Positions 5,956-31,981 of a stretch of DNA of 64,000 nucleotides are shown one piece after another; the stretch's first letter is position 1, and each line of letters starts with the position of its first letter. Source of the stretch: Shigella phage Silverhawkium; the sequence record MK562505; one strand, 5' to 3'. A program made the position numbers and the translations under genes. The notes under the pieces were generated by a model that was not told the DNA's origin, did not search any database, and saw nothing but the letters and a program-made list of their open reading frames with translations.

Positions 5956-6234
5956 TCAATCAAAAGTTACGTTGGTTACTGCCATTGCAGATTTACATTT
6001 TGCAGGGTCTACAGTGTGATAGAGAACACTACAGTTTCCTGTGCTATCTGGTACAGGTTTGACCCATTGGTGTTTAATATTTGGTTCTCCAAAGTCTTTG
6101 TAGGAACCATCTGTATAATGGTCTACCATCTCAATAGCAAGTATCTCTGGGACGTGACCACGTATCATATACATCTCACAACCATTCCCACCTTCACTTA
6201 CTAATGGTAAGATTTCCCATCTCTCTTTAGCCAT
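5956..6234 (-). CDS. hypothetical protein (92 aa)
   Basis: ORF in operon. Confidence 0.35.
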   Translation of the reverse strand: MAKERWEILPLVSEGGNGCEMYMIRGHVPEILAIEMVDHYTDGSYKDFGEPNIKHQWVKPVPDSTGNCSVLYHTVDPAKCKSAMAVTNVTFD

Positions 6235-6742
6235 GATAAGTTGCCCTATAAACTGTCTCGAACTTCAACAAGAGAGATATTGCCAGAGTCACATACTCCT
6301 TGTCAAGCATTGGTGGCATATTATTTTTGATATATTCCTCCTGTTCTTCATAGGTCATCTTAGGAGTGTCCAGAATAGTTTCTCCCTGCTTCTGGTTATC
6401 AAGTTGAGTCTGGATAAACCAGTTAGAGCAATGATGCTCACCACCCTTTGTGACGGGCTTGTGGTGGCCTAATGTGAAGGCTTGCTTACCAGAGTATCTG
6501 CATAGTTTGTTAAGTGATGCAATAGTGTTCTTGACAACACAGTACTCGTATAGGTTGTCTATGGTGTAGTGAGGGTAGTATCTGAAGAGTGATTTGTCAC
6601 GGAAGCTTCCATGATTCCAAAGAACCATGTGATTAGAGTTTGAAGGGTCATATTTGTGGGAGTCTATAAATTCTTGACGCTCATCAAAATCGAGACGCAG
6701 AACAGACATTGCAGCAGAGCGCTTAAGATTTGCAAGATACAT
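6227..6742 (-). CDS. HNH-motif endonuclease-like protein
   Basis: 171 aa; GHHKPVTKGGEHHCSNW...N fits the HH-x2-P-x3-GG-x-N HNH core. Confidence 0.45.
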   Translation of the reverse strand: MYLANLKRSAAMSVLRLDFDERQEFIDSHKYDPSNSNHMVLWNHGSFRDKSLFRYYPHYTIDNLYEYCVVKNTIASLNKLCRYSGKQAFTLGHHKPVTKGGEHHCSNWFIQTQLDNQKQGETILDTPKMTYEEQEEYIKNNMPPMLDKEYVTLAISLLLKFETVYRATYHG

Positions 6743-7391: not shown

Positions 7392-7667
7392 CTAAAGTTT
7401 AATACAGAACTTATTAAGTTCTTCTTCGCTGATACCGATTGGAGTATTACCTTCTCTGATATTTTGAATCCTGTAGAAGTCTCCAAACTTATCTGATTCA
7501 TGGATGACAAAGATAACGTTCTTTACCATTGTTGCAAGAGCACCTAGTGAACGCTCACCAAATTTCTCTCTTGTATAAATCATCCAAGCATCTAGCTTGT
7601 TAATGTTGTAAGTCCACTTACCAGAATAATTACTCTGCTCGCCATTGACAATCGCCTTGCCATCCAT
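7392..7667 (-). CDS. hypothetical protein; start uncertain, overlaps nrdG 3' end
   Basis: ORF 7392-7748 overlaps the nrdG C-terminus in another frame; may be shorter or spurious. Confidence 0.25.
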   Translation of the reverse strand: MDGKAIVNGEQSNYSGKWTYNINKLDAWMIYTREKFGERSLGALATMVKNVIFVIHESDKFGDFYRIQNIREGNTPIGISEEELNKFCIKL

Positions 7668-8115
7668 ACTCTTTTCTCCACAAGTTTTGGTTGTCTGAAC
7701 CACGATATGGTTTATTCGTTGGTTTAGAAGCATCATACTTACCATCAATCACTACGTCAACATATTTCATCACTTCTTTGTTAATTTTTTCATGAAGCTG
7801 AAACCCTGTCCATAGCCATATAGTTTTGTCTGGATAGATAGACTTAACCTTCTGACAAATCTTGGTGACTTCTTCAATATTACGGTCATCGAGTGGTTCT
7901 CCACCTAAAATTGATAAGCCGCTCAGTGAGTCATCTTCCAAGAGTCTTAGAATGCCATAAAGATTTGCGTAAGTAAATTCTTTTCCAGCATTAAACTTCC
8001 AAGATTCTTTATTAAAGCAACCTTCACAATGGTGTTTGCAGCCAGCTACAAAGAGACTAACACGAGCACCTTCACCATTTGCAGTATCAAATTTTCGTAT
8101 TTCCATATAGTTCAT
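7630..8115 (-). CDS. nrdG: anaerobic ribonucleotide reductase activating protein (radical SAM)
   Basis: 161 aa; CKHHCEGC radical-SAM cysteine cluster; sits next to nrdD. Confidence 0.8.
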   Translation of the reverse strand: MNYMEIRKFDTANGEGARVSLFVAGCKHHCEGCFNKESWKFNAGKEFTYANLYGILRLLEDDSLSGLSILGGEPLDDRNIEEVTKICQKVKSIYPDKTIWLWTGFQLHEKINKEVMKYVDVVIDGKYDASKPTNKPYRGSDNQNLWRKEYGWQGDCQWRAE

Positions 8116-8510
8116 TCTACTACCTCCACTTCAATCTTCTCATAAGACATAACATATTCTGGACAGTGTTTGTAAATGAAGTCTTGCAAGATTTTACTAT
8201 CTTGTGCATCAGTCATCAAGGCTACATACTTAGGATTCATCTTCTGAATGTAGCTGTAGAATGAGATATCACCAATCTCAGTTCCCCAATCATCGTCCCA
8301 AGTACCTGTTATGATAATGATTTTATCGAGTAACCAATCAGGGACTACTAAGCTTTCGTCCTCTTTGATTGAGTCAATTAACTCTTGAGTGATTGTGAGT
8401 TCACTGGTGATGTAAAAGCTTGAACCACGACGATGCTCTTTCTCACACTTTCCATCATCTAACGTGCATTCCTTCAGCACTTCCATTAACGCTTTGGAGA
8501 TTTTAAACAT
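8112..8510 (-). CDS. hypothetical protein (132 aa)
   Basis: ORF between nrdG and the HNH endonuclease. Confidence 0.4.
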   Translation of the reverse strand: MFKISKALMEVLKECTLDDGKCEKEHRRGSSFYITSELTITQELIDSIKEDESLVVPDWLLDKIIIITGTWDDDWGTEIGDISFYSYIQKMNPKYVALMTDAQDSKILQDFIYKHCPEYVMSYEKIEVEVVE

Positions 8511-8664
8511 TTTAACTTTCCTCTTAAGTCACAATAAAGGAGTCCTAGAAAGAACCCTAGTGAGATAGAACCGATGAATAAACCAATTATGTTCTCTGCC
8601 ATATCTAACATCCAATAAAAAGGTGATGCAAGCCTATCAAGACCTACACCACCTTGTCAACTAC

Positions 8665-9120
8665 TTACTTAAACCTACAACAATCTTTGTGGAGTTCCTT
8701 TCTCAGTTTCTTCATAAAATCAACAGCTTCCTCAAACTTTTCAAATCTTCTTGAAACCGTTTTCTTGTTATATGTTACTGAAGCTCTCCATCTTCTTCTT
8801 GTAGAGTCCCAAGATACACCTTTAAATCCAGTTTTGTTATCCTCTCGCAATTTAGCATTGCAAGCATTGTCAACTTTGTTAGAGGCTCTTAGGTTTATCC
8901 ACCTGTTATCATCCTTGATACCATTTATGTGGTCTACTAATTCAGGAGCATCTTCACCCATCAAAGTGAAAGCTAATCTATGAGCATACTGTTTTGAACC
9001 ATCTGGTAGTTCAATTAGTATGTATCCACTAGTTATCCTGCTTCCAGCCACATCTCCACTATCTTTCCATCTTATCTCCCCATTATCCGGGTTATAGTCA
9101 AGAAAATTAGCTACATACAT
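8665..9120 (-). CDS. free-standing HNH homing endonuclease with AP2-type DNA-binding domain
   Basis: YAHRLAFTLMG...VDHINGIKDDNRWINLR (HNH) and GFKGVSWDSTRRRWRASVTY (AP2-like); inserted between nrdD and nrdG. Confidence 0.7.
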   Translation of the reverse strand: MYVANFLDYNPDNGEIRWKDSGDVAGSRITSGYILIELPDGSKQYAHRLAFTLMGEDAPELVDHINGIKDDNRWINLRASNKVDNACNAKLREDNKTGFKGVSWDSTRRRWRASVTYNKKTVSRRFEKFEEAVDFMKKLRKELHKDCCRFK

Positions 9121-11255
9121 ACTCTGTCCTTAATTTCTGCAATTTTTGCATCATTCATTCTTGAAGTACCTTTTATTTTAGTCCACCCAAGATAACCACA
9201 AACACGATTGATAACTGAAATGTCATGTGAATGGCACTTAGGGCACTCATCAACATCTTCGTTAGGTCTATGTCCACAATTTTCACAGATTGCTAAGTCA
9301 AAGTTAACACCTTGATAGAAACCTTTACCCATACCTCGTGAGACACAAGCACTAATAGCTTTTTTGTTCTCTGGGTTTGCCATTCTAGAGTAAATGATGT
9401 GACCACCATTGCAAGAATGGAAGAATGGTTCTTCTAAGTCTTGCTTCTCAAATGGTGTAATCTCTGCTGCTACGTTCATATGGAAGCTGTTTGTAAAGTA
9501 CTCTTTATCAGATACCCCTTTGATTACTCCAAACATGTTACGGAACTGCTTTAATTGCGTACCACAAAGGCTCTCAGCAGGTGTCCCATAAAGGGCATAC
9601 AAGAAGCCATCTTCTTGCTTAAACTGCTCCAGTTTGTGGTTTAGGTGCTCCATAACTTGATGTGCAATACCTTTTGAGTTTGCCTCATGAAGTCTACCTT
9701 CTCCCGCAAGAACTGATAACTCATCTAATGCAGTAACACCAAACGATGCTGTGAAAGACTTCACTGTTTCCCAACCAATCTTATCAGTAGGTTTCTTATT
9801 ACCTTTATAGAGTCCACCTTGTGTGAATGCAAGAGGGTTTGAGCTTGCTGGCATGTTAGCAATCATCTCATACCGTTTTTGATGGAACACCCTAATCATT
9901 TCAAGATATTTGTCAATCTCTGCAAAGAAGTCAAGTTGATTCTCCTTAGCATACTGGTAAATCATCGGTAGATTTAGTGATACAGCACCAATGTTTGCAC
10001 GACCAACATAAAACTCTTTACCATCTTCATCAAAATATGGTGAGAGGTAAGCCCTGCACCCCATTGGCGAGATAACCTTACCAGAACGTTTGAAAGCATC
10101 TGCAACAGCACCATGACCAGATACACTCAAGAAGTCTGGGTACATTGCTTTTGAACAACACTCAATAGCTTTGCTGTATAGCTGACCTTGCCAGATATCC
10201 AGATTATGTCGTGTCTTATCATAGATATAGACAAGTTTTGGAAACACTACTGGCTTCTTAGCTTTTCCTTGTCCATTCATTCGAACATCAAGAATTGTCT
10301 TAGCAATCATGTACTGGAGTCTGTTATCTTCATTTGCCATATCTGGTTCCAGTAAACCAAAAGTCAAAGTTGTGAATGCAAAATCACCACGGCTACATGG
10401 CACTGTATTCAATTTCATTTCCAGTGACTGAAAGCCTTGTGTTAATTCAATTTGCAACTGGTTTTTAACATAATGGTAAATGTTTTCTTTAGGGATTCCA
10501 TAAGCAATAGCCATCTCTTCATGGTATTTTTGAGACTTCTTAGCATATGGCACTAGCACCTTATCAATCTCTGGGATAGTGAATCCACCAAATTGTTGAG
10601 CAGTGGCTGACAAAACAACATCACCAATAACCTGCAAGGCTGACAGAACAGACTTAGGTTCACAGTATTCAATGCCTGACATTTCAAAGCCACCTTCTAA
10701 GACTTTGCCAATGTCAAACAAACAGCAGTTAATTCCGCCAAATACTAAGTCCCTCAAGTCATGAATATAGATAAAACCTTCTTCAATAGCTTTTGCCTCT
10801 TCAGGTGTCAAGTGATATTGTTTAAAGATTTCTTTAGTCAGATAACCACGGATAATAGAACCTTTAGTAGAGATTAAACTACTGTCAAAGTTAGCGTTTT
10901 CACGGTCTCCTAAGAACAGTGTATCTTTAGTCTTCTGATAGAGTTCATCCCAATTCTGTGCAACCTCTTTACGGTAGTTGCGATAGGTTGAGTAAGATTC
11001 GTAAATCTCGTGATTAACTTCTGCTAAAGCCCCTTCAACAATGCTGTGAATATCATCTACAGAGATTAGCATAGTGTTCTGATTACAAGCCTTGACAAGA
11101 ATACGCATAAAAGCTGATTCAAGGGCATGAGCAACCTCTAATGGGAGTTCTTTATACCCCACTCTATTAGCTGACTTTGTAACTGCTGCTAAAACTTTTT
11201 TAATATCTGGTTCTTCAAGTGAGCCATTCTTTTTAATAATTTGTACTTTGACCAT
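9111..11255 (-). CDS. nrdD: anaerobic ribonucleoside-triphosphate reductase
   Basis: C-terminal glycyl-radical region RVCGYLG and Cys-rich metal site; start moved to MVKVQ with AAGGAG RBS (ORF-track start 11357 lies upstream of a terminator). Confidence 0.85.
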   Translation of the reverse strand: MVKVQIIKKNGSLEEPDIKKVLAAVTKSANRVGYKELPLEVAHALESAFMRILVKACNQNTMLISVDDIHSIVEGALAEVNHEIYESYSTYRNYRKEVAQNWDELYQKTKDTLFLGDRENANFDSSLISTKGSIIRGYLTKEIFKQYHLTPEEAKAIEEGFIYIHDLRDLVFGGINCCLFDIGKVLEGGFEMSGIEYCEPKSVLSALQVIGDVVLSATAQQFGGFTIPEIDKVLVPYAKKSQKYHEEMAIAYGIPKENIYHYVKNQLQIELTQGFQSLEMKLNTVPCSRGDFAFTTLTFGLLEPDMANEDNRLQYMIAKTILDVRMNGQGKAKKPVVFPKLVYIYDKTRHNLDIWQGQLYSKAIECCSKAMYPDFLSVSGHGAVADAFKRSGKVISPMGCRAYLSPYFDEDGKEFYVGRANIGAVSLNLPMIYQYAKENQLDFFAEIDKYLEMIRVFHQKRYEMIANMPASSNPLAFTQGGLYKGNKKPTDKIGWETVKSFTASFGVTALDELSVLAGEGRLHEANSKGIAHQVMEHLNHKLEQFKQEDGFLYALYGTPAESLCGTQLKQFRNMFGVIKGVSDKEYFTNSFHMNVAAEITPFEKQDLEEPFFHSCNGGHIIYSRMANPENKKAISACVSRGMGKGFYQGVNFDLAICENCGHRPNEDVDECPKCHSHDISVINRVCGYLGWTKIKGTSRMNDAKIAEIKDRVCM

Positions 11256-11508: not shown

Positions 11509-11743
11509 TGTTCACCTCTGCCATAAAGTCTTGTAGTGTGCCAACAGGAATCAAAGTAGTGTCATCAGTCTTCATAATGAAAGGCATCTGACGAACTGGC
11601 ATCTTTGCAATATCCATTAAGTCGGAGAGTTCATAATCCTGACCCAACATTCTTACAACGTGGTCAATACCACGAGCCTTTGCAAAGTTCTTCGCTGTTT
11701 CACACTGAGGGCAACCAGTTTTTGAATAAATTACGTAAGTCAT
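11501..11743 (-). CDS. glutaredoxin/NrdH-like redoxin
   Basis: 80 aa; N-terminal CPQC active-site motif; adjacent to nrdB. Confidence 0.7.
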   Translation of the reverse strand: MTYVIYSKTGCPQCETAKNFAKARGIDHVVRMLGQDYELSDLMDIAKMPVRQMPFIMKTDDTTLIPVGTLQDFMAEVNNA

Positions 11744-12816
11744 TAAGGAACCTCTAAATATCCTGAATTTAAATCATCTACAACAGTATTCAACAAGTAT
11801 GCACCGTTCTGCTGCTCTTGGTTAGCATTCTGCTCTTTATCAATCTCCATCTTCTTAATCATATATTTCAAAGGTGGTTCTTTAGGAGCTACGAAGTCTC
11901 TTGGAATACCAAACATATCATACAGTGGTGCAGCATTATAGTAAACCCATTCATGCAACAATTTTGTGTTTAGGCCAACCACTGCACGACCTTCAGAGAA
12001 GATATAATAAGACCATTTCTCTTCACTTTCAACTACTTCATCAAGAATTACTTTGATTTCTGGAAGAACCTGACGGAAAGCTTCTTGCCACTCTTCATCT
12101 TTCAAAGTTTCTTTCAGTGCTTCAATGTCAATCTTCGTGTGAAGGATTTCATCAAGCATGATTTTTTGTACTGCCTGAGCAATACCTTGGAACTTATCTT
12201 GTGCATCAAGTGCAAAAGTACATGCAAAGGATGCCATAAAAGATACACCTTCCAAGGCTGTCACTGCGAACAGACCTTTCAGAATCACTTTGTGAAAGTG
12301 TAGAGGGTCTTTCTCAAGTAGTGCATCACGAACATAGGTTAGACGGTAGTTTATACCTTCGTCGAGTAATTCTTCCAGTGCTCTGTTAACAGTCTTCAGA
12401 CGGTCTTGTACAGCAGCATTTTGATTAATCTCATCAAGGATTGTGTCTGGGTTCTTGATACACTGACGTACAATCTCTGAGTAAGTTAATGCGTGAAGAT
12501 TCTCAATCTCAGACTGTTTCATAATTGCAGTTGCGTAGATATCATCAGAGATGAATGGTGCAAATGCAAATGCCAAACTTTTAGCAACCTGTGTGTCTGC
12601 TTCCCATTGCCACTTAAGAATCTCAAGCATTACACCAGACATTGATTCTGGTACACTTTCAAAGTCTAATCGTGACTGCTCAAATGGAAACTCATCTTCA
12701 GACCAGTCCTGTGCTTTCTGCTGTTTGTACAATTCAAAGATTTTTGGATAGTGTTTGTTGAGTGAGTCAAAGGTTTTACGCTCACCACCTAAAAAGATTG
12801 GATGTTGGTTAATCAT
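11743..12816 (-). CDS. nrdB: ribonucleotide reductase class Ia beta subunit
   Basis: 357 aa; R2-like fold with conserved acidic/His iron ligands; directly downstream of nrdA. Confidence 0.85.
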   Translation of the reverse strand: MINQHPIFLGGERKTFDSLNKHYPKIFELYKQQKAQDWSEDEFPFEQSRLDFESVPESMSGVMLEILKWQWEADTQVAKSLAFAFAPFISDDIYATAIMKQSEIENLHALTYSEIVRQCIKNPDTILDEINQNAAVQDRLKTVNRALEELLDEGINYRLTYVRDALLEKDPLHFHKVILKGLFAVTALEGVSFMASFACTFALDAQDKFQGIAQAVQKIMLDEILHTKIDIEALKETLKDEEWQEAFRQVLPEIKVILDEVVESEEKWSYYIFSEGRAVVGLNTKLLHEWVYYNAAPLYDMFGIPRDFVAPKEPPLKYMIKKMEIDKEQNANQEQQNGAYLLNTVVDDLNSGYLEVP

Positions 12817-13143: not shown

Positions 13144-15378
13144 CTAAACACCGCAACCTTCGCAGTAAGCATCTTGTAGTGCTGACTTACCAACACCAAT
13201 TCTACTGTTCAGGTAGTACATAGTTTTCATACCTACAGTGTTGGCATAAATCATGTACTTTAAAGCTTGCTCTAATGATACCTTCTTAGATTTAGAGTAG
13301 TCAACATAGAAATCTGAAGAGATAGCTTGACCAGTGAATTTTTGAACAATTGCATAGCAATCAATCATATCGAATGTGTCAATGTCCCAAGCGATTTCAT
13401 AGACATACTTCAATTCTTCATAATCTGGAACAATAAACAGGACGTTACCAGTTGCAGACTTTTTGGTTAAGATAAAGTCACGGATTGGGTACAGTCCATT
13501 AGTCGTATTAGTTGCCAGTGAAGAACTCTCATTAGGCATGTAAGCCTCAAGTACAGAGTTTCGAATACCACCATTCGCCTTAATACGGTCTGCTAAGTCA
13601 TCCCAATCATAGCGAAGTTTCGCATCGTGCTTTTCATCAATCTTCTTGTTAGCTGTCTTTGGAGGAACCCAACCTTCAGGATACTTGGTGAACTGCATAT
13701 ATTCAGGCACACCACGCTCTTTAGCCAGCCTCAAAGATGCTTCATGCAAGTAGTAAGAGTGCATCTCCGCAAGTTCATGAAGTTTTGTCTTACCAGCCCT
13801 TGATGAGTAGTTCACGTAGTTCTTCGCAAGGTAATGAGCCACATTTGTAAGGCCAATCCCAACAGAACGACGCTTCTGGACGTGATTACGCATTGACGGA
13901 TACGGATACTCCATAAGGTCAATAACGGAGTCAACCATTGCCAAAGCATAATAAGCAACGTCAGCGTATTCATCTTCTGTGATTCTCCCTGCAACAAGAC
14001 TAGCTAAGAAGCAAAGAGCTACCTCACCATCCTCTTTAGCAGCATCATAGCTGTAAAGGTCTGTCTCTTTTTCAAATCCATAAACTGGAAGTACAATCTC
14101 CATGCAAAGATTTGACATTTTCAAAGGTTCTTTGAATGGTGTATGTGTATTGGCATTATTCGTAAAGAATGGATACACACGCCCTGTAGCATAACGTTGC
14201 TGAATAAACAGTTTAGCTACTTCACGAGCTTTTACCCTTTTATGTTTAACTCCAGCATGGACTGCGTGACCAACTGCTTCAGCAAACTCATCAGCAGAAG
14301 CTGTGTAGAACATGTCATAGAGCCTTGGAGCATCCTTGTAAGAGAATAGCAACCAATCTGTATCATACTGCACACATTGCCAGAAATAATCATTTGCACC
14401 AAATGAGTAGTCCATCTCATTAATACGCTTTGATGGAACAGTTGTAGGGTGCTTCAGACGAAGTAAATCTTCAATCTGAGGGTCTAGAGCAGTATAAAAG
14501 TTATTAGCTGAACCACCACGACTCTTTTGTTTATTTGCCTCTACAGCAGCACGTACAAGCTTGTAATAAGGGAGTTTCCCCATATGCTCAATAGTGTTTT
14601 GTCGAATACCATCACCAATTGTTCTGGTCTCCATAAGCATACCAATACCAGCTTGTTTAGTGGTCATATCGTAGGCTACTTTTGTAGCAATGCCGAGTGA
14701 CTCAGCAGTGTCATTAGCTTTAATCAAACAGCATGACGCATACCCAGACTTAGTAGCTCTTAAACCATTCAGATAGGGGGTAGGAGCATTAATTTTCAAG
14801 TCTGACAGATAAGTGTACAGTTTGATAACATCCTCTAAGCGTCGTTGCTTAGGCTGTCTTTCAAAGGCTTTCATAGCCATTCCCATGAACATAAATTGTG
14901 GTGACTCAAAGAGTTGTCCAGTTTTAATGTCACGAATACCGTACTTATCACGGAACTGTTTAAGTACTGCATAACCATATGAGATATCTTTTGAGTGAAC
15001 AATGTACCCTTGCAGATATTCTAACTCTTCTCGTGAGTAGTCCATCTTTTCCCAGAGTCCTAATACCTCCATATTTTTAACGAAGACATAAAGGTTTGGA
15101 ACTTTAGTGAATCCTCCAAAAGCCTCTTTATAGATGATACCCAACAGTAGTCGTCCAGCCATGTCTGAGTATTCTTGACTCTGCTTATCAATACAAACGT
15201 CAATCATAGCTTGGTGCATTTCTTTAGTTGTGCAACCTTCATAGACACGTTTCATAGCTTCCATAGTAACTTCTGACCAGATAATTCCACGTTTATCAGC
15301 CCAAGAAGCCCACTTGTTTAAACGTTCTGGTTCAAAAGTAACTAAACTTCCATTAGATTTGCGAATTGTTTTAATCAT
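13144..15378 (-). CDS. nrdA: ribonucleotide reductase class Ia alpha subunit
   Basis: 744 aa; active-site NLCMEI cysteine context and C-terminal CEGC redox pair. Confidence 0.85.
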   Translation of the reverse strand: MIKTIRKSNGSLVTFEPERLNKWASWADKRGIIWSEVTMEAMKRVYEGCTTKEMHQAMIDVCIDKQSQEYSDMAGRLLLGIIYKEAFGGFTKVPNLYVFVKNMEVLGLWEKMDYSREELEYLQGYIVHSKDISYGYAVLKQFRDKYGIRDIKTGQLFESPQFMFMGMAMKAFERQPKQRRLEDVIKLYTYLSDLKINAPTPYLNGLRATKSGYASCCLIKANDTAESLGIATKVAYDMTTKQAGIGMLMETRTIGDGIRQNTIEHMGKLPYYKLVRAAVEANKQKSRGGSANNFYTALDPQIEDLLRLKHPTTVPSKRINEMDYSFGANDYFWQCVQYDTDWLLFSYKDAPRLYDMFYTASADEFAEAVGHAVHAGVKHKRVKAREVAKLFIQQRYATGRVYPFFTNNANTHTPFKEPLKMSNLCMEIVLPVYGFEKETDLYSYDAAKEDGEVALCFLASLVAGRITEDEYADVAYYALAMVDSVIDLMEYPYPSMRNHVQKRRSVGIGLTNVAHYLAKNYVNYSSRAGKTKLHELAEMHSYYLHEASLRLAKERGVPEYMQFTKYPEGWVPPKTANKKIDEKHDAKLRYDWDDLADRIKANGGIRNSVLEAYMPNESSSLATNTTNGLYPIRDFILTKKSATGNVLFIVPDYEELKYVYEIAWDIDTFDMIDCYAIVQKFTGQAISSDFYVDYSKSKKVSLEQALKYMIYANTVGMKTMYYLNSRIGVGKSALQDAYCEGCGV

Positions 15379-16816: not shown

Positions 16817-17025
16817 TAGACCTCCTGAAACAGTTTCTGCTTAGACTCAATATAATCCAGACGGGATTTAAGTTCAACGCGTTTGTTCAACAGATGCTGG
16901 ATTTGAGACTCAAGAGCTTCCATCTCAGCTTCTGTAGTTTCTTTAGCTTTTGCAATGATTACCTTGAGGTTTTCTACGCCAGCTTCAATCTTTGCTTTAT
17001 GGTCTTGCTTGATAGTGTTAAACAT
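16816..17025 (-). CDS. small coiled-coil protein (69 aa)
   Basis: charged heptad-like sequence. Confidence 0.4.
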   Translation of the reverse strand: MFNTIKQDHKAKIEAGVENLKVIIAKAKETTEAEMEALESQIQHLLNKRVELKSRLDYIESKQKLFQEV

Positions 17026-17527
17026 GATTTTCTCTCTCGTTAAGTTTCATTATTTTTTGAATACGTTTTTCAGCTTCTTCGTAGGTTTCTTTTGTCAGAA
17101 ACTTGATAGCTGCGATATTTGCATTGTAGAAGAGTCTGAGTTTCGAGTCAATCCTTTTTGTCATAACATCGAACTTGTGTTGGAGATTTGCTTCTCCGTA
17201 GACCAATCCACCTCGCGTATAATAAGTTTGGATGATATAGAAGTCAAATTCTTTTTCACCAAAAGCTTCAATATCTTTCTTAATGTATTCAGAAGAAGTC
17301 TGGTAAACCATCCAGTCACTCTCTTTTGTGACCACCTTACGTCTTGTTTTTCCAGCAACCTTCTTCTTGGTGATGCTATTAAACTGCTTCTTACCAATGT
17401 AATACTGTCCTGTCTTCTTGCAATATACTAAGTAGACAAAACCAAACAGTTTAGCGGGGTCAATCTCCCCGCATAAAGATACCCAATGACCATAAGTAGG
17501 GCAATCCCCGAAACCTTTAATCTTCAT
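17018..17527 (-). CDS. GIY-YIG-type endonuclease-like protein
   Basis: 169 aa; FGFVYLVYCKKTGQYYIGKK resembles the GIY...YIG core. Confidence 0.45.
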   Translation of the reverse strand: MKIKGFGDCPTYGHWVSLCGEIDPAKLFGFVYLVYCKKTGQYYIGKKQFNSITKKKVAGKTRRKVVTKESDWMVYQTSSEYIKKDIEAFGEKEFDFYIIQTYYTRGGLVYGEANLQHKFDVMTKRIDSKLRLFYNANIAAIKFLTKETYEEAEKRIQKIMKLNERENHV

Positions 17528-24543: not shown

Positions 24544-27243
24544 ATGGAAAATGTAGATTTTGAAAACTTGCATTTAGTTGGTGATACAGAAACTGATGGG
24601 TTGTTGCTTGAGTTCACAAAAGCTCACGTTATGGCCTTTGCAGATTACAAAGATGACAGTGACGAACCTCCTGTTTGGGTATTCACTGATGAACCTATCC
24701 TTGGTCACAAGTATACCAAATACATTAAAGGTGGCTTACGAGAAGGGGTTGAGTTTGCTTTAAAGGCAAAAAGACTTTGCATCCACAATGGTCTGGGTTA
24801 TGACTGGTGGGTGTTTAACCACATTGCACCTGATTTATGGAACTTTGATAATCCAAAGTGTAAACCTTGGGGTGATTTCTTCCAAGACTCACTTATTCAG
24901 TCTCGCGTTCAGTGGATGGATAGGCCAACACCAAAAGGCTACAAAGGTGCTCACGGATTGGCTGCGTGGGGTGCTCGTGTTGGTGTTCGTAAACCTGAGA
25001 TTGAAGAGTGGGGTGTATGGAATGCAGAAATCCTTAACCGTGTTGTTGAAGATATCCGCATTAACGCCAAAGCAAAAAGGGCTATGGATAATGAGTATCT
25101 AAAACTGAAGAAGTGTGGTGTTGATACTTATGAAACATACATGAGAGCCAAGGAAACATCTTTTTGGATGAGTCAGCAAGCAATCAATGGTTGGAAAGCT
25201 GATATCAACAAAATGAAAAGTTGTATCAAAGAGTTGGATAAGATGACTTCTGACTTAGCTTCTGAGGTAGAACCATTCTTACCACCAACTATCAAAACAA
25301 AAGGTAAAGTTACTGGTGAAGAATTTGCCAAGTCATGGAATGAGTACGTAGAGACATTTGGTGGTGCAGATGGTTTGAAGAGAATCACAAAGTACCCTAA
25401 GACAAAATATCGTCAGCAGGTTCGTAATGGTGAGATGCAAAGTTACCCTATCAAGCCATATGGAAAACCAACTACAAAGATTTTCAGCATTGAAAAAAGA
25501 AATTGCTACACTCCAACTAACACCGTTACTGGAGAAGAGTACAAAGAAGGTTTTGTAGCGATGAAAGATGCTCGTGCAGTTTGCAATGAGTTAAATGCTA
25601 AAGTGGATAAGAAGTGCAAAGATTGGAAGCCAGTTAAGACGGTGAAGATTGTGAAGTACTACAACAACCATGTAGTTAATCACTTTGGTCTTGAATCAAG
25701 TCGATACACAGGGTTGATTGATGCACCGTATACACCTATTGAGTTTGAAGTGTCACGAATGACTCAGGTGGCTGTTGTTAAGGATTACTTGAAGACTTTA
25801 GGTTGGATTCCTGATGATTGGAATTACAAGAAGGATTCAGATGGTCGTCCTGTGAAAGTTTGTCGATTCAAAGACAATAAGAAAATGATTCGCAAGCACC
25901 CAAAATGGGATGAAATGGTTGAGCGTTGTGGATTGAACTATGTTGAGCACGAAGGTATTCAGTACATTGAGCATAACTGGTCTGTCAAAAAGTACACAGA
26001 CTTGCTTGAGCCTTGCTTGATTCGTACTTCACCAAAACTGACTGAATCATCTTATGACACCATTGAAGGTGAACTTGGACAGAAGATTGCGAAGTACTAT
26101 ACTTTGATGCACCGACGTAGAACTATTGAGAACTCAAAAGATGATGAAAAGGGCTGGTTGAACCAGATTCGTCCAGATGGTCGTTTGAGTGCTGGTGCAA
26201 TGGTGTTTGGTACATCTACTGGACGTATGACGCAGTATGGTATTGTAAACGTACCTTCTGGTGCTGCCGTTTATGGGGAACCAATGAGGGCAGTTTGGAT
26301 TTGTGAAGAAGGGACAAACGTAGTCTCTGTAGATATGAACTCTGCACAGCTTGTTCTTCTTTGTAACTTTATGGGTGATAAGGATTTCACAAAGGCTGTA
26401 ACTGAAGGTAAAGAAGAGATTGAGTTTGTTCGTCAAGAAGATGGTCGTTACTATTGCAAACACTTTGATGAATACTTGAACCCTGAAGTTGACAAGTATC
26501 TTCGTTATGACCATGAAAATGACCTGTATGTAGTTTACTCAGGTACTGATGCTCATACACTGAACAGTATCTACTTTAGTTTGAATGATGAGCAGGATAT
26601 CTTGACTTGTCGTATGACTCAGGATGAAAATCTTCTTCACGAAATTAGTAAGGGTCGTAAGAAAGCTAAGAATGGTATCTATGCACTGTTGTTCGGTGCA
26701 GGTGATGAAAAGTTTGCTAAGACCATTAAAGCAGCTACCACTCAGGAAGGTGCATTAACTAAACAGACTTACTTTGTGCGTTTGCCGAAGATTAAGAAAC
26801 TGTTAGACAACTTAGAAGCCGACTTTAAAGCTACTAAGAAAGCACTGGAAGAGGTGTTTGGTAAAACTGCTGCTATCGCTAAAGGTGGTTTTGTTAAGGT
26901 TGCTGGTGCTTGGTTGTGGTGTAAATCTCCACATAAACTTTTGAACTATCTGTTGATGGGTTCAGAAGCACAAGTACAGAATGAAGCAATCAACCTTGCT
27001 TGTCGTCGTATGATTGATGAAGGGTTAATGAAACTGAATGGTCGTAAACCAGCTATTGGTGCTCGCCTACTCTGTGCTTACCACGATGAAACAAGCTGGG
27101 AATGTCCAGAGAGCATGACAGCAGAAGTCAAAGCAGTAACTGACTGGTACTACGGGCAAGCTTCTAAGAACTTAGGTCTTAAAAAAGATACCCTTGTAAC
27201 TGGTGCTGGTAAGGTTGGTAAAAGCTGGCTGGAAGTTCACTAA
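24544..27243 (+). CDS. DNA polymerase, family A, with 3'-5' exonuclease domain
   Basis: 899 aa; exo motif LVGDTETDGL; motif A-like VDMNSAQLV, motif B-like KNGIYALLFGAG, motif C-like YHDE; GAGGGAG RBS. Confidence 0.9.
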   Translation: MENVDFENLHLVGDTETDGLLLEFTKAHVMAFADYKDDSDEPPVWVFTDEPILGHKYTKYIKGGLREGVEFALKAKRLCIHNGLGYDWWVFNHIAPDLWNFDNPKCKPWGDFFQDSLIQSRVQWMDRPTPKGYKGAHGLAAWGARVGVRKPEIEEWGVWNAEILNRVVEDIRINAKAKRAMDNEYLKLKKCGVDTYETYMRAKETSFWMSQQAINGWKADINKMKSCIKELDKMTSDLASEVEPFLPPTIKTKGKVTGEEFAKSWNEYVETFGGADGLKRITKYPKTKYRQQVRNGEMQSYPIKPYGKPTTKIFSIEKRNCYTPTNTVTGEEYKEGFVAMKDARAVCNELNAKVDKKCKDWKPVKTVKIVKYYNNHVVNHFGLESSRYTGLIDAPYTPIEFEVSRMTQVAVVKDYLKTLGWIPDDWNYKKDSDGRPVKVCRFKDNKKMIRKHPKWDEMVERCGLNYVEHEGIQYIEHNWSVKKYTDLLEPCLIRTSPKLTESSYDTIEGELGQKIAKYYTLMHRRRTIENSKDDEKGWLNQIRPDGRLSAGAMVFGTSTGRMTQYGIVNVPSGAAVYGEPMRAVWICEEGTNVVSVDMNSAQLVLLCNFMGDKDFTKAVTEGKEEIEFVRQEDGRYYCKHFDEYLNPEVDKYLRYDHENDLYVVYSGTDAHTLNSIYFSLNDEQDILTCRMTQDENLLHEISKGRKKAKNGIYALLFGAGDEKFAKTIKAATTQEGALTKQTYFVRLPKIKKLLDNLEADFKATKKALEEVFGKTAAIAKGGFVKVAGAWLWCKSPHKLLNYLLMGSEAQVQNEAINLACRRMIDEGLMKLNGRKPAIGARLLCAYHDETSWECPESMTAEVKAVTDWYYGQASKNLGLKKDTLVTGAGKVGKSWLEVH

Positions 27244-27303
27244 TAGTGTTGACAAGGTGCTCATGGAAGAGTACCTTATACTATATCTTGTATAGGAGGT
27301 CAT

Positions 27304-28531: not shown

Positions 28532-29632
28532 ATGACAATTCTGTACAAACAAAATAAAGATGGCTCTTTTAACGTCTGGTCATGTGTTGCTGTAGGTGAC
28601 AAAGTCGTCACAACTTATGGTAAAGAAAATGGCAAGATGATGTTTGAAGAGTACACAGCAGAACCTAAGAACATCGGTAAAAAGAATGAGCGTAATGCTG
28701 AACAGCAAGCTCTCTTTGAAGTTGCTGCTAAGTACAAGAAGCAGGTTGACCGTAAAGGGTATGCTTACACAAAATCTGAAGCAGAGAATGTTGAAAAGGT
28801 TGGTGTACAGCTTGCTCAGGATGCTTCCAAGATAAGTCACAAGAAGTATCTGGTATTCCCTGCCGATGCTCAACCTAAACTTGACGGGGTTCGTTGCAGG
28901 ATTTCAAGAGATGCTGACTCAGAAAGTTTTACAGCATATTCTCGTGAGAACACGGTATACAACATTCCTGTAGAGTTGATTCCTGATGTTCTTCTTATGC
29001 TGAAGCTTCATAAAGATGTTGAAGATTTCGACGGTGAGATTTATGCTCATGGTTGGGACTTGGAAGATATTGTGTCTATGATTAAGAATGCTGACAATCC
29101 AGACCGTCACCTTCTTAAATTCTACTGGTATGATATCTGTGACAAGACTAAATCTTGGCCTGAGCGTCGTGAAGTTATTGATAATTCACCAATCGTTGAA
29201 CTCGGTGATGCTTGCAGGGTTGTACCTGTTCAGACAATCCGTGTTAACTCTTGGGAAGAATTTGATAATGCTCATGACAATTGGGTTAAACTCAAGTTTG
29301 AAGGGGCAATGTATCGGTCAATCTCACCAGATTCGTTCTATGAGTGTGGTCACCGTTCGTACTTCTTGATTAAACACAAGAAGATGCACACGCAGGAGTT
29401 CATAGTAACTGCTGTCAAGACTGATAAACGTGGTCACGGTAAGTTCGTTGTAGAGACCCTTCCTAACGTCTTTGTAGATGTTTCATGGAAAACTACCCAT
29501 GAGAAGAAGCAGCATCTTGCTGAACATCCTGAAGAGTTTATCGGGAAGCCTTTAACGGTTCAGTTCCAGAAGATGACTCGTAAGGGGTCTTTACAGTTCC
29601 CTGTTGGGCTTGTTATACGAGATTATGAATAG
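28532..29632 (+). CDS. ATP-dependent DNA ligase
   Basis: 366 aa; adenylation motif I KLDGVR. Confidence 0.8.
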   Translation: MTILYKQNKDGSFNVWSCVAVGDKVVTTYGKENGKMMFEEYTAEPKNIGKKNERNAEQQALFEVAAKYKKQVDRKGYAYTKSEAENVEKVGVQLAQDASKISHKKYLVFPADAQPKLDGVRCRISRDADSESFTAYSRENTVYNIPVELIPDVLLMLKLHKDVEDFDGEIYAHGWDLEDIVSMIKNADNPDRHLLKFYWYDICDKTKSWPERREVIDNSPIVELGDACRVVPVQTIRVNSWEEFDNAHDNWVKLKFEGAMYRSISPDSFYECGHRSYFLIKHKKMHTQEFIVTAVKTDKRGHGKFVVETLPNVFVDVSWKTTHEKKQHLAEHPEEFIGKPLTVQFQKMTRKGSLQFPVGLVIRDYE

Positions 29633-29640
29633 AGGTTAGC

Positions 29641-29790
29641 ATGTTTAGCGCAATTATCCTGTTTGTTTTTGTTGTTTTATCATTATCTTACTTCATAAGT
29701 AAACTGATAAGCATAACATACAAATCAGCCTTAGCCCTTACTCTGTTATCATTTGTAGTAAATGCAGTAGTCAGAGAATTTTTAATATAA
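29641..29790 (+). CDS. small hydrophobic membrane protein (49 aa), absent from the ORF track
   Basis: hand translation MFSAIILFVFVVLSLSYFISKLISITYKSALALTLLSFVVNAVVREFLI; GAGG RBS. Confidence 0.35.
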   Translation: MFSAIILFVFVVLSLSYFISKLISITYKSALALTLLSFVVNAVVREFLI

Positions 29791-29795
29791 AGTTG

Positions 29796-29823
29796 TTGAC
29801 ATAGAAAATTTGGTGAGTATACT
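29796..29823 (+). promoter_or_regulatory. sigma70-like promoter (-35 TTGACA, -10 TATACT)
   Basis: consensus hexamers with 16-nt spacer; transcript would run into the repeat modules. Confidence 0.55.
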
Positions 29824-29854
29824 GAGCAGCATAAACCAACGGGTACTCACCAGC

Positions 29855-30111
29855 ATCACTTAAGAGTCTTTGAAAAGGATTTTTAAGTGATATTTGGTAT
29901 GGTATGGTACGGTTCGGTGGTGTATGGTTTGGTTCGGTGGTGTAAGGTGTGGTCCGGTAAAGTATGGGTAGTTAGTCTCAGCTACATTAAAATGAGACTT
30001 ACCTTTTTAAAAGGTCTTGAAGAGGGTCTTTTAATAAGGTAGGGTAAGGTTAGGTAAGGTATGGTTGGGTTAGGTATGGGTGGATGGTAGTAGCCACGTT
30101 AAAAATCTACC
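29855..30111 (+). repeat. noncoding modular repeat region 1: two units of hairpin + phased GGTNN array + hairpin
   Basis: hairpin atcacttaa/ttaagtgat (29855-29891); 15 in-phase pentamers (29896-29970); hairpin agtctc/gagact (29974-29999); second array (30038-30088); hairpin ggtag/ctacc (30086-30111); no ORF of 60 aa or more. Confidence 0.8.
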
Positions 30112-30169
30112 AAGTTTCTAAAGAGTCTTCTGTTGAGGGTTCTTTATAAACAACTTAACAATAAACTAA

Positions 30170-30775
<606 letters not shown>

Positions 30776-30777
30776 TT

Positions 30778-31218
30778 ATGAATACAAAAGCATTAGCAGC
30801 AAAGTTTAGTTACGGTGATACTGTATCACACTCTGAGATGGACACCTTCTTAGGTATTGAGAAGCCAACTTATCAAGGTAACATTGTTAAGTACGAAGAT
30901 GAAATGAAGGCTTACGCGCTTACACGCCTAAATCGACTTGAGAAGTTTATTGAGAAGCTTCTTAAAGAAGAGAAGATTTATCTGGTTGCTTCAATGGGTG
31001 TTGGTTATCGCGTGGTTGAACCCAAACATCAAGCAACTATTGCAAAACGTAAAATGTCTAGTAAGATTGGTCGTGCTTTAAAGCAAGCCACTCAAGCGAT
31101 TGAGAATGTGAACACTATGGCACTGAGTCATCAAGAACGTTCACGACTGATTGAACAGCAAAACCATTTAGCTGCCATGAAAGCTAACATTAACAAACAA
31201 CGTAGAAAGCCTTTCTAA
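30778..31218 (+). CDS. hypothetical protein (146 aa) with basic C-terminus
   Basis: ORF 3 nt after the previous stop; C-terminus NINKQRRKPF. Confidence 0.5.
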   Translation: MNTKALAAKFSYGDTVSHSEMDTFLGIEKPTYQGNIVKYEDEMKAYALTRLNRLEKFIEKLLKEEKIYLVASMGVGYRVVEPKHQATIAKRKMSSKIGRALKQATQAIENVNTMALSHQERSRLIEQQNHLAAMKANINKQRRKPF

Positions 31219-31229
31219 GTTGATTAGGT

Positions 31230-31252
31230 AGCCTCTTCGGAGGCTCCTTTTT
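31230..31252 (+). terminator. rho-independent terminator after the cassette
   Basis: AGCCTC-ttcg-GAGGCT followed by a T-run. Confidence 0.6.
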
Positions 31253-31253
31253 A

Positions 31254-31512
31254 AAAGGTCTTTAAAAGGGTCTTTTAATAAGGCTCGGCAATGTTCGGCA
31301 TGGTCTGGTATAGTCCGGTGCTGTTCGGCGTGGTAAGGTGAGGTATGGGTAGTTAATCGGAGCTACATAAAAATTCGATTACATCACTTAAGAGTCTTTG
31401 AAAAGGGTTTTTAAGTGAGGTTTGGCTCAGTATGGTTATGTGTGGTGATGTGTGGTTCTGTAAGGTCATGTTTGGTATGGAAGGATGGCAGTAGCCTTAT
31501 AAAAAATCTGCC
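31254..31512 (+). repeat. noncoding modular repeat region 2: same module family as region 1 in a different order
   Basis: arrays at 31282-31351 and 31424-31488; hairpins aatcg/cgatt (31355-31380), atcacttaa/ttaagtga (31383-31418), ggcag/ctgcc (31487-31512). Confidence 0.8.
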
Positions 31513-31531
31513 AAATAAGCTATAAAATCTG

Positions 31532-31560
31532 TTGACAAGTCAGGTGTTATAGCTTATTTT
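31532..31560 (+). promoter_or_regulatory. candidate sigma70-like promoter (-35 TTGACA, 17-nt spacer, -10 TATTTT)
   Basis: upstream of the secreted-protein gene; TATACT also present further downstream. Confidence 0.35.
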
Positions 31561-31600
31561 TATACTCAAATGTATACAAAATTTTATATAGGAGGTAGTT

Positions 31601-31981
31601 ATGAAAAAGTTACTTGTTGGTGTCATTGCTCTTGGTATGAGTTTTAGTGCAGTGGCTATGAAGATGCCTGAAGCAAACTTTAGTGGTGTTGCTTTAGAAT
31701 CTTGTAAGATTGTACAGAAAATTGCATCAAATGCTGGAGAGTTAACTAAACCGTTGTCTGCTACGACTGTTCAAGAAATGACTGATAAGATGGTTGACTA
31801 CAACTACCATTTTATGGGAGATTACTATGACAGATTAGCAGATGAGATGGTCACTCAGAACGTTGACCTTCTTGATAGTAAAGGTATTGAGACTGTAGAA
31901 GATGTGAAAGACAACTTTATGCGTGAGTCTTTCAAAGGTGTTCAATACTTTATTGAAAATCGTCACTGCATGGGTTTATAA
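31601..31981 (+). CDS. putative secreted/periplasmic protein
   Basis: 126 aa; N-terminal signal peptide MKKLLVGVIALGMSFSAVA; AGGAGG RBS. Confidence 0.5.
   Translation: MKKLLVGVIALGMSFSAVAMKMPEANFSGVALESCKIVQKIASNAGELTKPLSATTVQEMTDKMVDYNYHFMGDYYDRLADEMVTQNVDLLDSKGIETVEDVKDNFMRESFKGVQYFIENRHCMGL

Follow-up and report, generated by a model that had tools for sequence, protein, structure and literature searches.

How did an endonuclease gene come to lie between nrdD and nrdG, which encode the large subunit and the activase of the anaerobic ribonucleotide reductase (RNR), in Shigella phage Silverhawkium, and does this gene promote its own spread among related phages? We addressed this question in a 64,000-nt stretch of the phage sequence (record MK562505; one strand, numbered from its first letter), which as a whole is called the window. 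The window derives from an Ounavirinae (FelixO1-like) myovirus, and its top GenBank match is Enterobacteria phage CHB7 (Suspvirus), with which it is collinear; most alignment blocks between the two are 75-89% identical and the long blocks 79-88%. We conclude that the gene at 8665-9120 is likely a free-standing (‘intronless’) homing endonuclease gene (HEG) of HNH_3 plus AP2 architecture, active now or until recently. An earlier reading of the same DNA, referred to here as the original prediction, had proposed invasion by a homing endonuclease, and this is supported by a precise empty site, a 933-bp tract shared with CHB7, incongruent backbones, intact catalytic residues and purifying selection.

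An intact HNH endonuclease with an AP2-like C-terminus

The HNH endonuclease gene proposed between nrdD and nrdG corresponds exactly to an open reading frame (ORF), and residues 45-86 of its product match Pfam HNH_3 with 37.6 bits (cut-off 24.8), while the whole protein falls into phrog_99 ‘HNH endonuclease’ of PHROGs with E=2.6e-51. In an alignment of 54 sequences (the window protein and 53 homologues) H46, D62, H63, N71, N75, L76, R77 and N84 were invariant, and N87 was conserved in at least 90%. Because H46, D62, H63, N71, N75 and N84 are among these invariant positions, the D-H...N...N motif is intact, and the catalytic His with its adjacent Asp and the Asn residues are all present in the window protein (...VDHINGIKDDNRWINLRASNKVDNACN...). 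A sequence search of the PDB and a search of NCBIfam with this protein gave no significant match. We then compared structures, using an AlphaFold2 model of the HEG protein that was built from the homologue alignment and reached a pLDDT of 91.5. The top PDB match in Foldseek was I-HmuI (1u3e; E=1.7e-3, prob 1.00, TM-scores 0.49/0.43, 147 aligned columns), followed by a Plasmodium AP2 domain (3igm, prob 0.90) and, weakly, by the AP2 domain of SIP2 (6sy0, prob 0.20).

The AP2-like domain that the original prediction had placed in this protein is upheld by fold and homologues but not by the Pfam profile. Residues 97-126 score 19.5 bits against Pfam AP2 (PF00847), below the cut-off of 33.3, and cover profile positions 1-30 of 54 only, whereas precomputed PF00847 matches are found in many homologues of the HEG, those at 42-50% identity and below. 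In the model, strands 101-104, 109-116 and 119-125 followed by helix 128-146 give a beta-beta-beta-alpha order, and the modelled C-terminal part (residues 101-146) thus fits the AP2 fold. Hence the HNH assignment is solid, and the AP2 assignment stands on fold and homologues, the Pfam match itself not being significant. The wider HNH-AP2 family is large, with tblastn matches in 3083 phage records, nearly all at less than 60% identity.

The ratio of nonsynonymous to synonymous substitution rates (dN/dS) was 0.06-0.11 for pairs of HEG orthologues and 0.25 for the closest pair, which indicates, from coding-sequence comparison, that the gene is under purifying selection. The dN/dS values together with the domain evidence rule out the reading that this ORF is not a gene.

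A precise insertion between the nrdD stop codon and its terminator

To see which related phages carry the gene, we searched GenBank phages with a 701-nt query spanning the junction. The query matched 296 records, and the HEG was present in two of them, with 100% identity in CHB7 and about 79% in Shigella phage SFPB. The other 294 lack this HEG, so the junction comparison with relatives, which would have spoken against the original prediction if insert-free alleles had been missing, does not refute it. The empty allele is precise, with the break falling between ...ATGTA and AGTAGTTGACAAGG; for example, in phage pEC-M719-6WT.1 nrdD ends in ...TCT ATG TAA and is directly followed by GTAGTTGACAAGG and the terminator. 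Moreover, the empty junction has a single form in the 23 loci examined, the nrdD stop codon and then the terminator directly. The added DNA in the window amounts to 446 bp (8666-9111), sits between the nrdD stop codon and the terminator and is entirely coding; the distance from the nrdD stop codon to nrdG is 996 nt in the window versus 551 nt in empty alleles. The original prediction had taken nrdD and nrdG to be adjacent as a rule, and this has to be corrected: the terminator, a 41-aa ORF and a 132-aa ORF always lie between them, so that the 551 nt of the empty alleles already hold two ORFs.

The insertion alters the end of nrdD without interrupting it. The window reads GTA TGT ATG TAG where the empty allele reads AAA TCT ATG TAA, and the G at 9118 makes the penultimate NrdD residue Cys in place of Ser; a C-terminus ...EIKDR[VI]CM* is encoded by all ten HEG-bearing alleles. 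The HEG has an ORF of its own, which is read in a different frame and overlaps nrdD by 10 nt, and nrdD runs uninterrupted to its own stop codon (9111-9113). An intron- or intein-encoded enzyme was considered and is ruled out by the intact nrdD and the separate ORF of the HEG. An AAGGA lies 6 nt 5' of the HEG start codon, within nrdD, and because both this motif and the ATG lie inside the last nrdD codons, translation of the HEG is probably coupled to that of nrdD. On the other side a hairpin, which in empty alleles comes immediately after the end of nrdD, starts 10 nt past the HEG stop codon; it is invariant in five aligned phages and nearly so among phages that are ~20% different elsewhere. 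The HEG would be transcribed together with nrdD, because it forms a promoterless, all-coding cassette that separates the nrdD stop codon from the terminator of nrdD. As a side observation, the region 8612-8664 opens with a perfect TTGACA that overlaps the terminator and might mark a promoter for the downstream genes; a consensus scan called none, and no promoter is claimed.

The same junction also receives other genes. Occupancy by other inserts was read from an evenly spaced sample of 51 Ounavirinae rows, 13 of which hold a different insert of ~570 nt. In phage radambza (L004:3374-3931) this insert encodes 185 aa with NUMOD3 above the Pfam cut-off and a sub-threshold HNH of the colicin-DNase type, and because of these two domains we regard it as an unrelated HEG. 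The junction between the nrdD stop codon and the terminator of Ounavirinae is a hot spot for at least two unrelated HEG families. An insert directly behind the nrdD stop codon was also seen in phiSUSP1 (L022).

Assemblies from metagenomes and the SRA yielded five further clusters of HEG orthologues at 64-99% amino acid identity, SFPB being the sixth. Every orthologue that was looked up (four clusters, CHB7 and SFPB) occupies the same site with the same 10-nt overlap with nrdD, and the lineages at this site include one whose NrdD is only 63% identical. The search of IMG/VR for close relatives of the HEG returned only two distant loci (36-44% identity). No paralogue of the HEG was found in the 64-kb window; CHB7 has three HNH-AP2 genes. 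Two places where CHB7 has such a gene are empty in the window, namely 17517-17527 (gp26, between the GIY-YIG-like gene and an exonuclease gene) and 27221-27248 (gp37, just after the DNA polymerase gene). We found no HEG-free phage with a backbone close to that of the window, so that the evidence for the state of this lineage before insertion is indirect.

Probable transfer of the gene between different backbones

We compared the HEG and its flanks between the window and CHB7, and found them free of mismatches over 933 bp (8478-9410), a tract that comprises the HEG, 290 nt of the 3' end of nrdD and 187 nt downstream. This is the longest perfect run in the 64 kb, the next being 217 and 123 nt, and the longest run expected by chance at 82% identity is ~47 nt. 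Outside the tract the CHB7 background is roughly 80-88% identical. Other pairs of HEG-bearing loci showed this pattern or its converse: L010 and L011 are 99-100% identical in the HEG tract versus 64-86% in the middle of nrdD, and SFPB/L011 and CHB7/L009 have backbones that are 94-100% identical with HEG tracts at 68-90%. Five pairwise comparisons placed the left change-over at -279 to -333, counted from the HEG ATG. Backbone and HEG tract are thus incongruent, and these alignments indicate that the HEG and its flanking markers moved together.

Past the tract, identity to CHB7 is patchy, with 16 mismatches in 8328-8477 and then a perfect run of 217 bp (8111-8327), a pattern that looks like patches of mismatch repair or a second exchange.

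Substitutions in nrdD that accompany the gene

We compared the last 420 nt of nrdD in 34 loci, of which 10 carry the HEG and 24 do not (being empty or holding other inserts). All ten HEG-bearing loci encode NrdD with GGHI[IV]YSR and the end ...[VI]CM*, and all 24 loci that lack the HEG encode GG[HR]IQY[IV]R and the end ...SM*. The window codes for H-I-I-Y-S-R-M at 9381-9401, and HEG-less alleles have H-I-Q-Y-[IV]-R in its place. Only six columns in the 420 nt separate the two groups fully; five of them lie within 8 nt (9395-9393 and 9389-9388), and the sixth, 9118, is the last base of the HEG ATG. The chance of five discriminating columns clustering in this way is about 1.5e-6. Measured from the left end of the tract shared by the window and CHB7, this site lies 15 nt inward.

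The glutamine form GGHIQY[VI]R is usual among related metagenomic NrdD fragments in a search with the NrdD C-terminus, which returned mainly short fragments in which presence of the HEG was not scorable. NrdD in solved structures has GGHI[SF]YVE at this position. When a 43-aa peptide of NrdD was compared with GenBank phages by tblastn, CHB7 and SFPB came out on top with all others at ≤86%; this agrees with the linkage, but the search does not resolve single residues. A degenerate DNA pattern of the putatively resistant nrdD allele found no match in IMG/VR or JGI metagenomes, and thus has no bearing on whether such alleles occur without the HEG.

These substitutions suggest that the nrdD codons for GGHIQY(I/V)R are the recognition or cleavage target, with carriers immune through changes there; we give this a roughly even chance and no more, because hitch-hiking of the co-transferred segment is an alternative. 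A more detailed version is tentative and, in our judgement, falls slightly short of an even chance. It holds that the target is nrdD GGHIQY(I/V)R ~270 nt upstream of the insertion, that immunity of carriers would need both Q->I/V and I/V->S, that Ser->Cys would be forced by the HEG start codon, and that the mobile cassette would span at least 720 bp, beginning at the resistant site and extending to the HEG, and would alter the protein sequence of this RNR subunit wherever it lands.

A homing model and its alternatives

In the model that we favour, a mixed infection with a HEG-less relative would allow the enzyme to bind DNA through its AP2-like and N-terminal beta domains, and the I-HmuI-like HNH site would nick or cut the naive nrdD allele. 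The target would lie ~260-280 nt upstream of the HEG ATG, in the codons for GGHIQY(I/V)R, and carriers would be protected by Q->I/V and I/V->S (window 9388-9395). Recombinational repair templated by the HEG-carrying genome would then copy the stretch that begins at the break and includes the HEG.

Several points weigh against homing or against the proposed site. Ounavirinae are mosaic throughout, identity to CHB7 ranging from 59 to 100% across 100-nt bins, and because of this mosaicism plain homologous recombination could move the segment without a nuclease. The independent HEG-bearing lineages form only about 6 clusters. In the distant lineage L014/L015 divergence is similar for the HEG and NrdD (64-65% versus 63% amino acid identity), as could also result from long vertical co-inheritance. 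By profile score, the AP2 assignment is below the Pfam threshold. The nrdD 3' ends of HEG-bearing loci could share ancestry by having travelled with the HEG, and some of the substitutions would then reflect hitch-hiking and not immunity. Moreover, two distant metagenomic NrdD fragments combine the motifs otherwise, one having GGHIVYNR with a ...VSM end (P0091) and the other GGHIQYVR with a ...KCM end (P0100).

The alternative that survives best, which we still consider unlikely, is that the gene is a passive passenger, a nuclease gene that is possibly inactive or serves another role and was shuffled by ordinary homologous recombination without promoting its own transfer. The swings of identity between the window and CHB7 just described would be expected of such shuffling, as would the nearby second perfect block of 217 nt, and the nrdD-nrdG interval does hold other variable ORFs in some relatives. 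However, no other perfect run in the 64 kb reaches even a quarter of the length of the 933-bp tract, the left breakpoints of the five comparisons fall within about 55 nt of each other, and the HEG-linked substitutions are bunched in 8 nt that encode part of a conserved NrdD motif. An intact catalytic motif under strong purifying selection is also unexpected for a non-functional gene.

It is very improbable that the HEG was ancestral to Ounavirinae at this site and was lost repeatedly, so that the pattern would reflect deletion and not invasion. The identical position of all orthologues, each with the 10-nt overlap, and the parallel divergence of HEG and NrdD in L014/L015 would agree with such a history, but with more than 99% of the matching GenBank records HEG-less and 23 empty loci of one form, many independent and exact deletions would be needed. 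With each loss, moreover, the linked NrdD codons would have to revert and the penultimate Cys to return to Ser, and an identical tract on backbones that are ~80% identical would be left unexplained.

Least probable of all is a domesticated AP2-type DNA-binding regulator (for example in control of the RNR operon) or a competition or defence nuclease (for example for exclusion of co-infecting phages): HEG-derived AP2-type domains have been co-opted as DNA-binding regulators (PMC10448857), HEG cleavage gives marker exclusion of competitors (PMC2988022) and purifying selection is strong here, but near-universal absence in relatives makes the gene dispensable for RNR expression, the HNH catalytic residues are invariant, and marker exclusion is homing's own mechanism and no alternative to it.

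Neighbouring genes and other features of the window

All genes around nrdD and nrdG are on the minus strand, and their order in the direction of transcription is nrdA, nrdB, glutaredoxin gene, a small membrane ORF, nrdD, the HEG, the hairpin, the 41-aa ORF, the 132-aa ORF and nrdG (Table 1). The 41-aa membrane ORF is found in relatives both with and without the HEG, and the 132-aa ORF is present in every relative examined, always between nrdD and nrdG. In two further HEG-bearing loci (L009:4521-4966 and L010:4528-4964) additional small ORFs, either of 112 and 35 aa or of 60 and 85 aa, lie between the HEG and the ~130-aa ORF, and the interval 3' of the HEG is thus variable too.

Table 1. Features of the nrdA-nrdG region of the window, with coordinates, strand and basis of assignment
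Feature	Position	Strand	Basis
nrdA	13144-15378	-	
nrdB	11743-12816	-	
nrdD, large subunit of the anaerobic RNR, 713 aa with the ATG start annotated in relatives	9111-11252	-	Pfam NRDD 5e-116, ATP-cone, Gly_radical; annotated with 2142 nt in relatives
Predicted recognition/immunity site in nrdD	9381-9401	-	HEG-linked columns; putative target role
Shine-Dalgarno-like AAGGA within nrdD codons Lys-Asp	9127-9131	-	Putative role, from sequence
HEG start codon inside the last nrdD codons	9118-9120	-	Sequence
HEG, free-standing HNH-AP2 gene, 151 aa + stop, ATG start	8665-9120	-	ORF list, Pfam, PHROG, AlphaFold2 model
Insertion, 446 bp, bounded by a 3-nt GTA repeat	8666-9111		Alignment with insert-free pEC-M719-6WT.1
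Tract 100% identical to CHB7, 933 bp, candidate co-conversion tract	8478-9410		Alignment
Intrinsic-terminator-like hairpin and T-run	8612-8655	-	16-pair stem 8655-8620, then TTTATTGG
41-aa membrane-protein ORF	8486-8611	-	phrog_20082 6.5e-21; annotated in pEC-M719-6WT.1
Conserved 132-aa ORF, unassigned function	8112-8510	-	phrog_4382 4.2e-55
nrdG, anaerobic RNR activase	7630-8115	-	Pfam Fer4_12 5.5e-44, Radical_SAM

Two further genes of the window had been called endonuclease-like in the original prediction; both are core genes and not insertions. The GIY-YIG-like gene at 17018-17527 does encode a GIY-YIG domain of the SegE type (4.6e-27), but it counts as a core gene because at least 257 of the 298 phage records that matched contain the stretch (at least 80% of a 1.2-kb query made of the gene and its flanks). 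Its 169-aa protein is called ‘NAD synthetase’ in many records (phrog_447), which looks like a propagated mis-annotation, and it may be a domesticated HEG nuclease domain. The HNH-like gene at 6227-6742 has a weak PHROG match to HNH only (3.8e-5) and none in Pfam, and it is a conserved core gene that is kept at its position in all relatives examined. Elsewhere in the window, the interval of ~2 kb that separates the DNA ligase gene from the next shared gene (29631-31601) has no counterpart in CHB7; it includes one ORF of 200 aa (30173-30775) and one of 146 aa (30778-31218).

Significance and comparison with known systems

It is textbook knowledge that lytic phages have free-standing HNH endonucleases beside RNR genes, and one more example matters little in itself. 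The finding is ordinary, and only the site prediction and the clean candidate co-conversion tract add anything to what is known. A modest value lies in having a clean natural example outside the T4 group, in which the cassette appears to borrow the start-codon context, the transcript and the terminator of nrdD; the sharply bounded 933-bp identical tract and a specific, testable prediction of a target and immunity site add to this value. Such tracts distort local phylogenies and are therefore relevant to phage therapy or typing with FelixO1-like phages.

The nearest known counterpart is gp14 of CHB7 (QBP32967.1), which is the same gene at the same locus, with a protein that is 100% identical and DNA that is 100% identical over the 933 bp; the CHB7 backbone differs, being about 80-88% identical outside the tract, and the database name ‘HNH endonuclease’ is generic. 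SFPB_061 of phage SFPB lies at the same locus with the same 10-nt overlap with nrdD, and its protein is 74% identical. In our literature search, no study dealt with homing, a target site or co-conversion of the HEG of CHB7 or SFPB. Several HEGs are known to be carried by FelixO1-type phages (PMC8300805).

In structure, the window protein resembles I-HmuI (PDB 1u3e) of Bacillus phage SPO1 in its fold and in the D-H...N...N catalytic motif, but the two differ in that sequence identity is 18% and I-HmuI is encoded within an intron. I-HmuI is a nickase, and its C-terminal DNA-binding part is helical (helix-turn-helix) and not AP2-like.

In domain architecture, the gene resembles the IPA-HNH HEGs described by Barth et al. 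2023, which combine an N-terminal HNH with a C-terminal AP2 and were found near RNR genes in 18% of the surveyed neighbourhoods (PMC10448857). Like them it is phage-encoded and free-standing, with an N-terminal HNH and a C-terminal AP2-like domain, a likeness that is drawn from architecture. The IPA-HNH HEGs are enriched beside essential genes and at boundaries of genetic exchange, and the same paper cites the HNH-AP2 family as identified earlier in protists, cyanobacteria and phages (PMC10448857). That survey features Barbaviruses, Flaumdraviruses and ICP1, not Ounavirinae.

The closest parallels in behaviour come from T4, in which anaerobic RNR genes are known targets of the seg and mob genes, and the seg/mob cassettes are promoterless and use upstream transcription (PMC2988022; for MobE, PMC2790892). 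MobE nicks nrdB and mobilises flanking DNA (PMC2790892), and according to Liu et al. 2003, as cited in PMC2988022, SegG co-converts from a cleavage site at a distance. Like MobE, SegF and SegG, which are free-standing HEGs beside RNR or other conserved genes that act inside the neighbouring gene and move with flanking markers, the window HEG would act inside its neighbour, and its predicted site ~270 nt from the insertion point would follow the SegG/MobE logic of action at a distance. However, SegF and SegG are GIY-YIG enzymes, unlike the window HEG, and the cleavage sites of MobE, SegF and SegG were mapped by experiment, whereas the window site is predicted from polymorphism. T4 mobC is a free-standing HNH HEG between nrdG and nrdD, its target being listed as unknown (Edgell, Gibb & Belfort 2010, PMC2988022). 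The phage families are unrelated (Tevenvirinae versus Ounavirinae), but by description both the window HEG and mobC are free-standing, promoterless HEGs of the HNH family that lie in the nrdD/nrdG interval of lytic myoviruses of enterobacteria.

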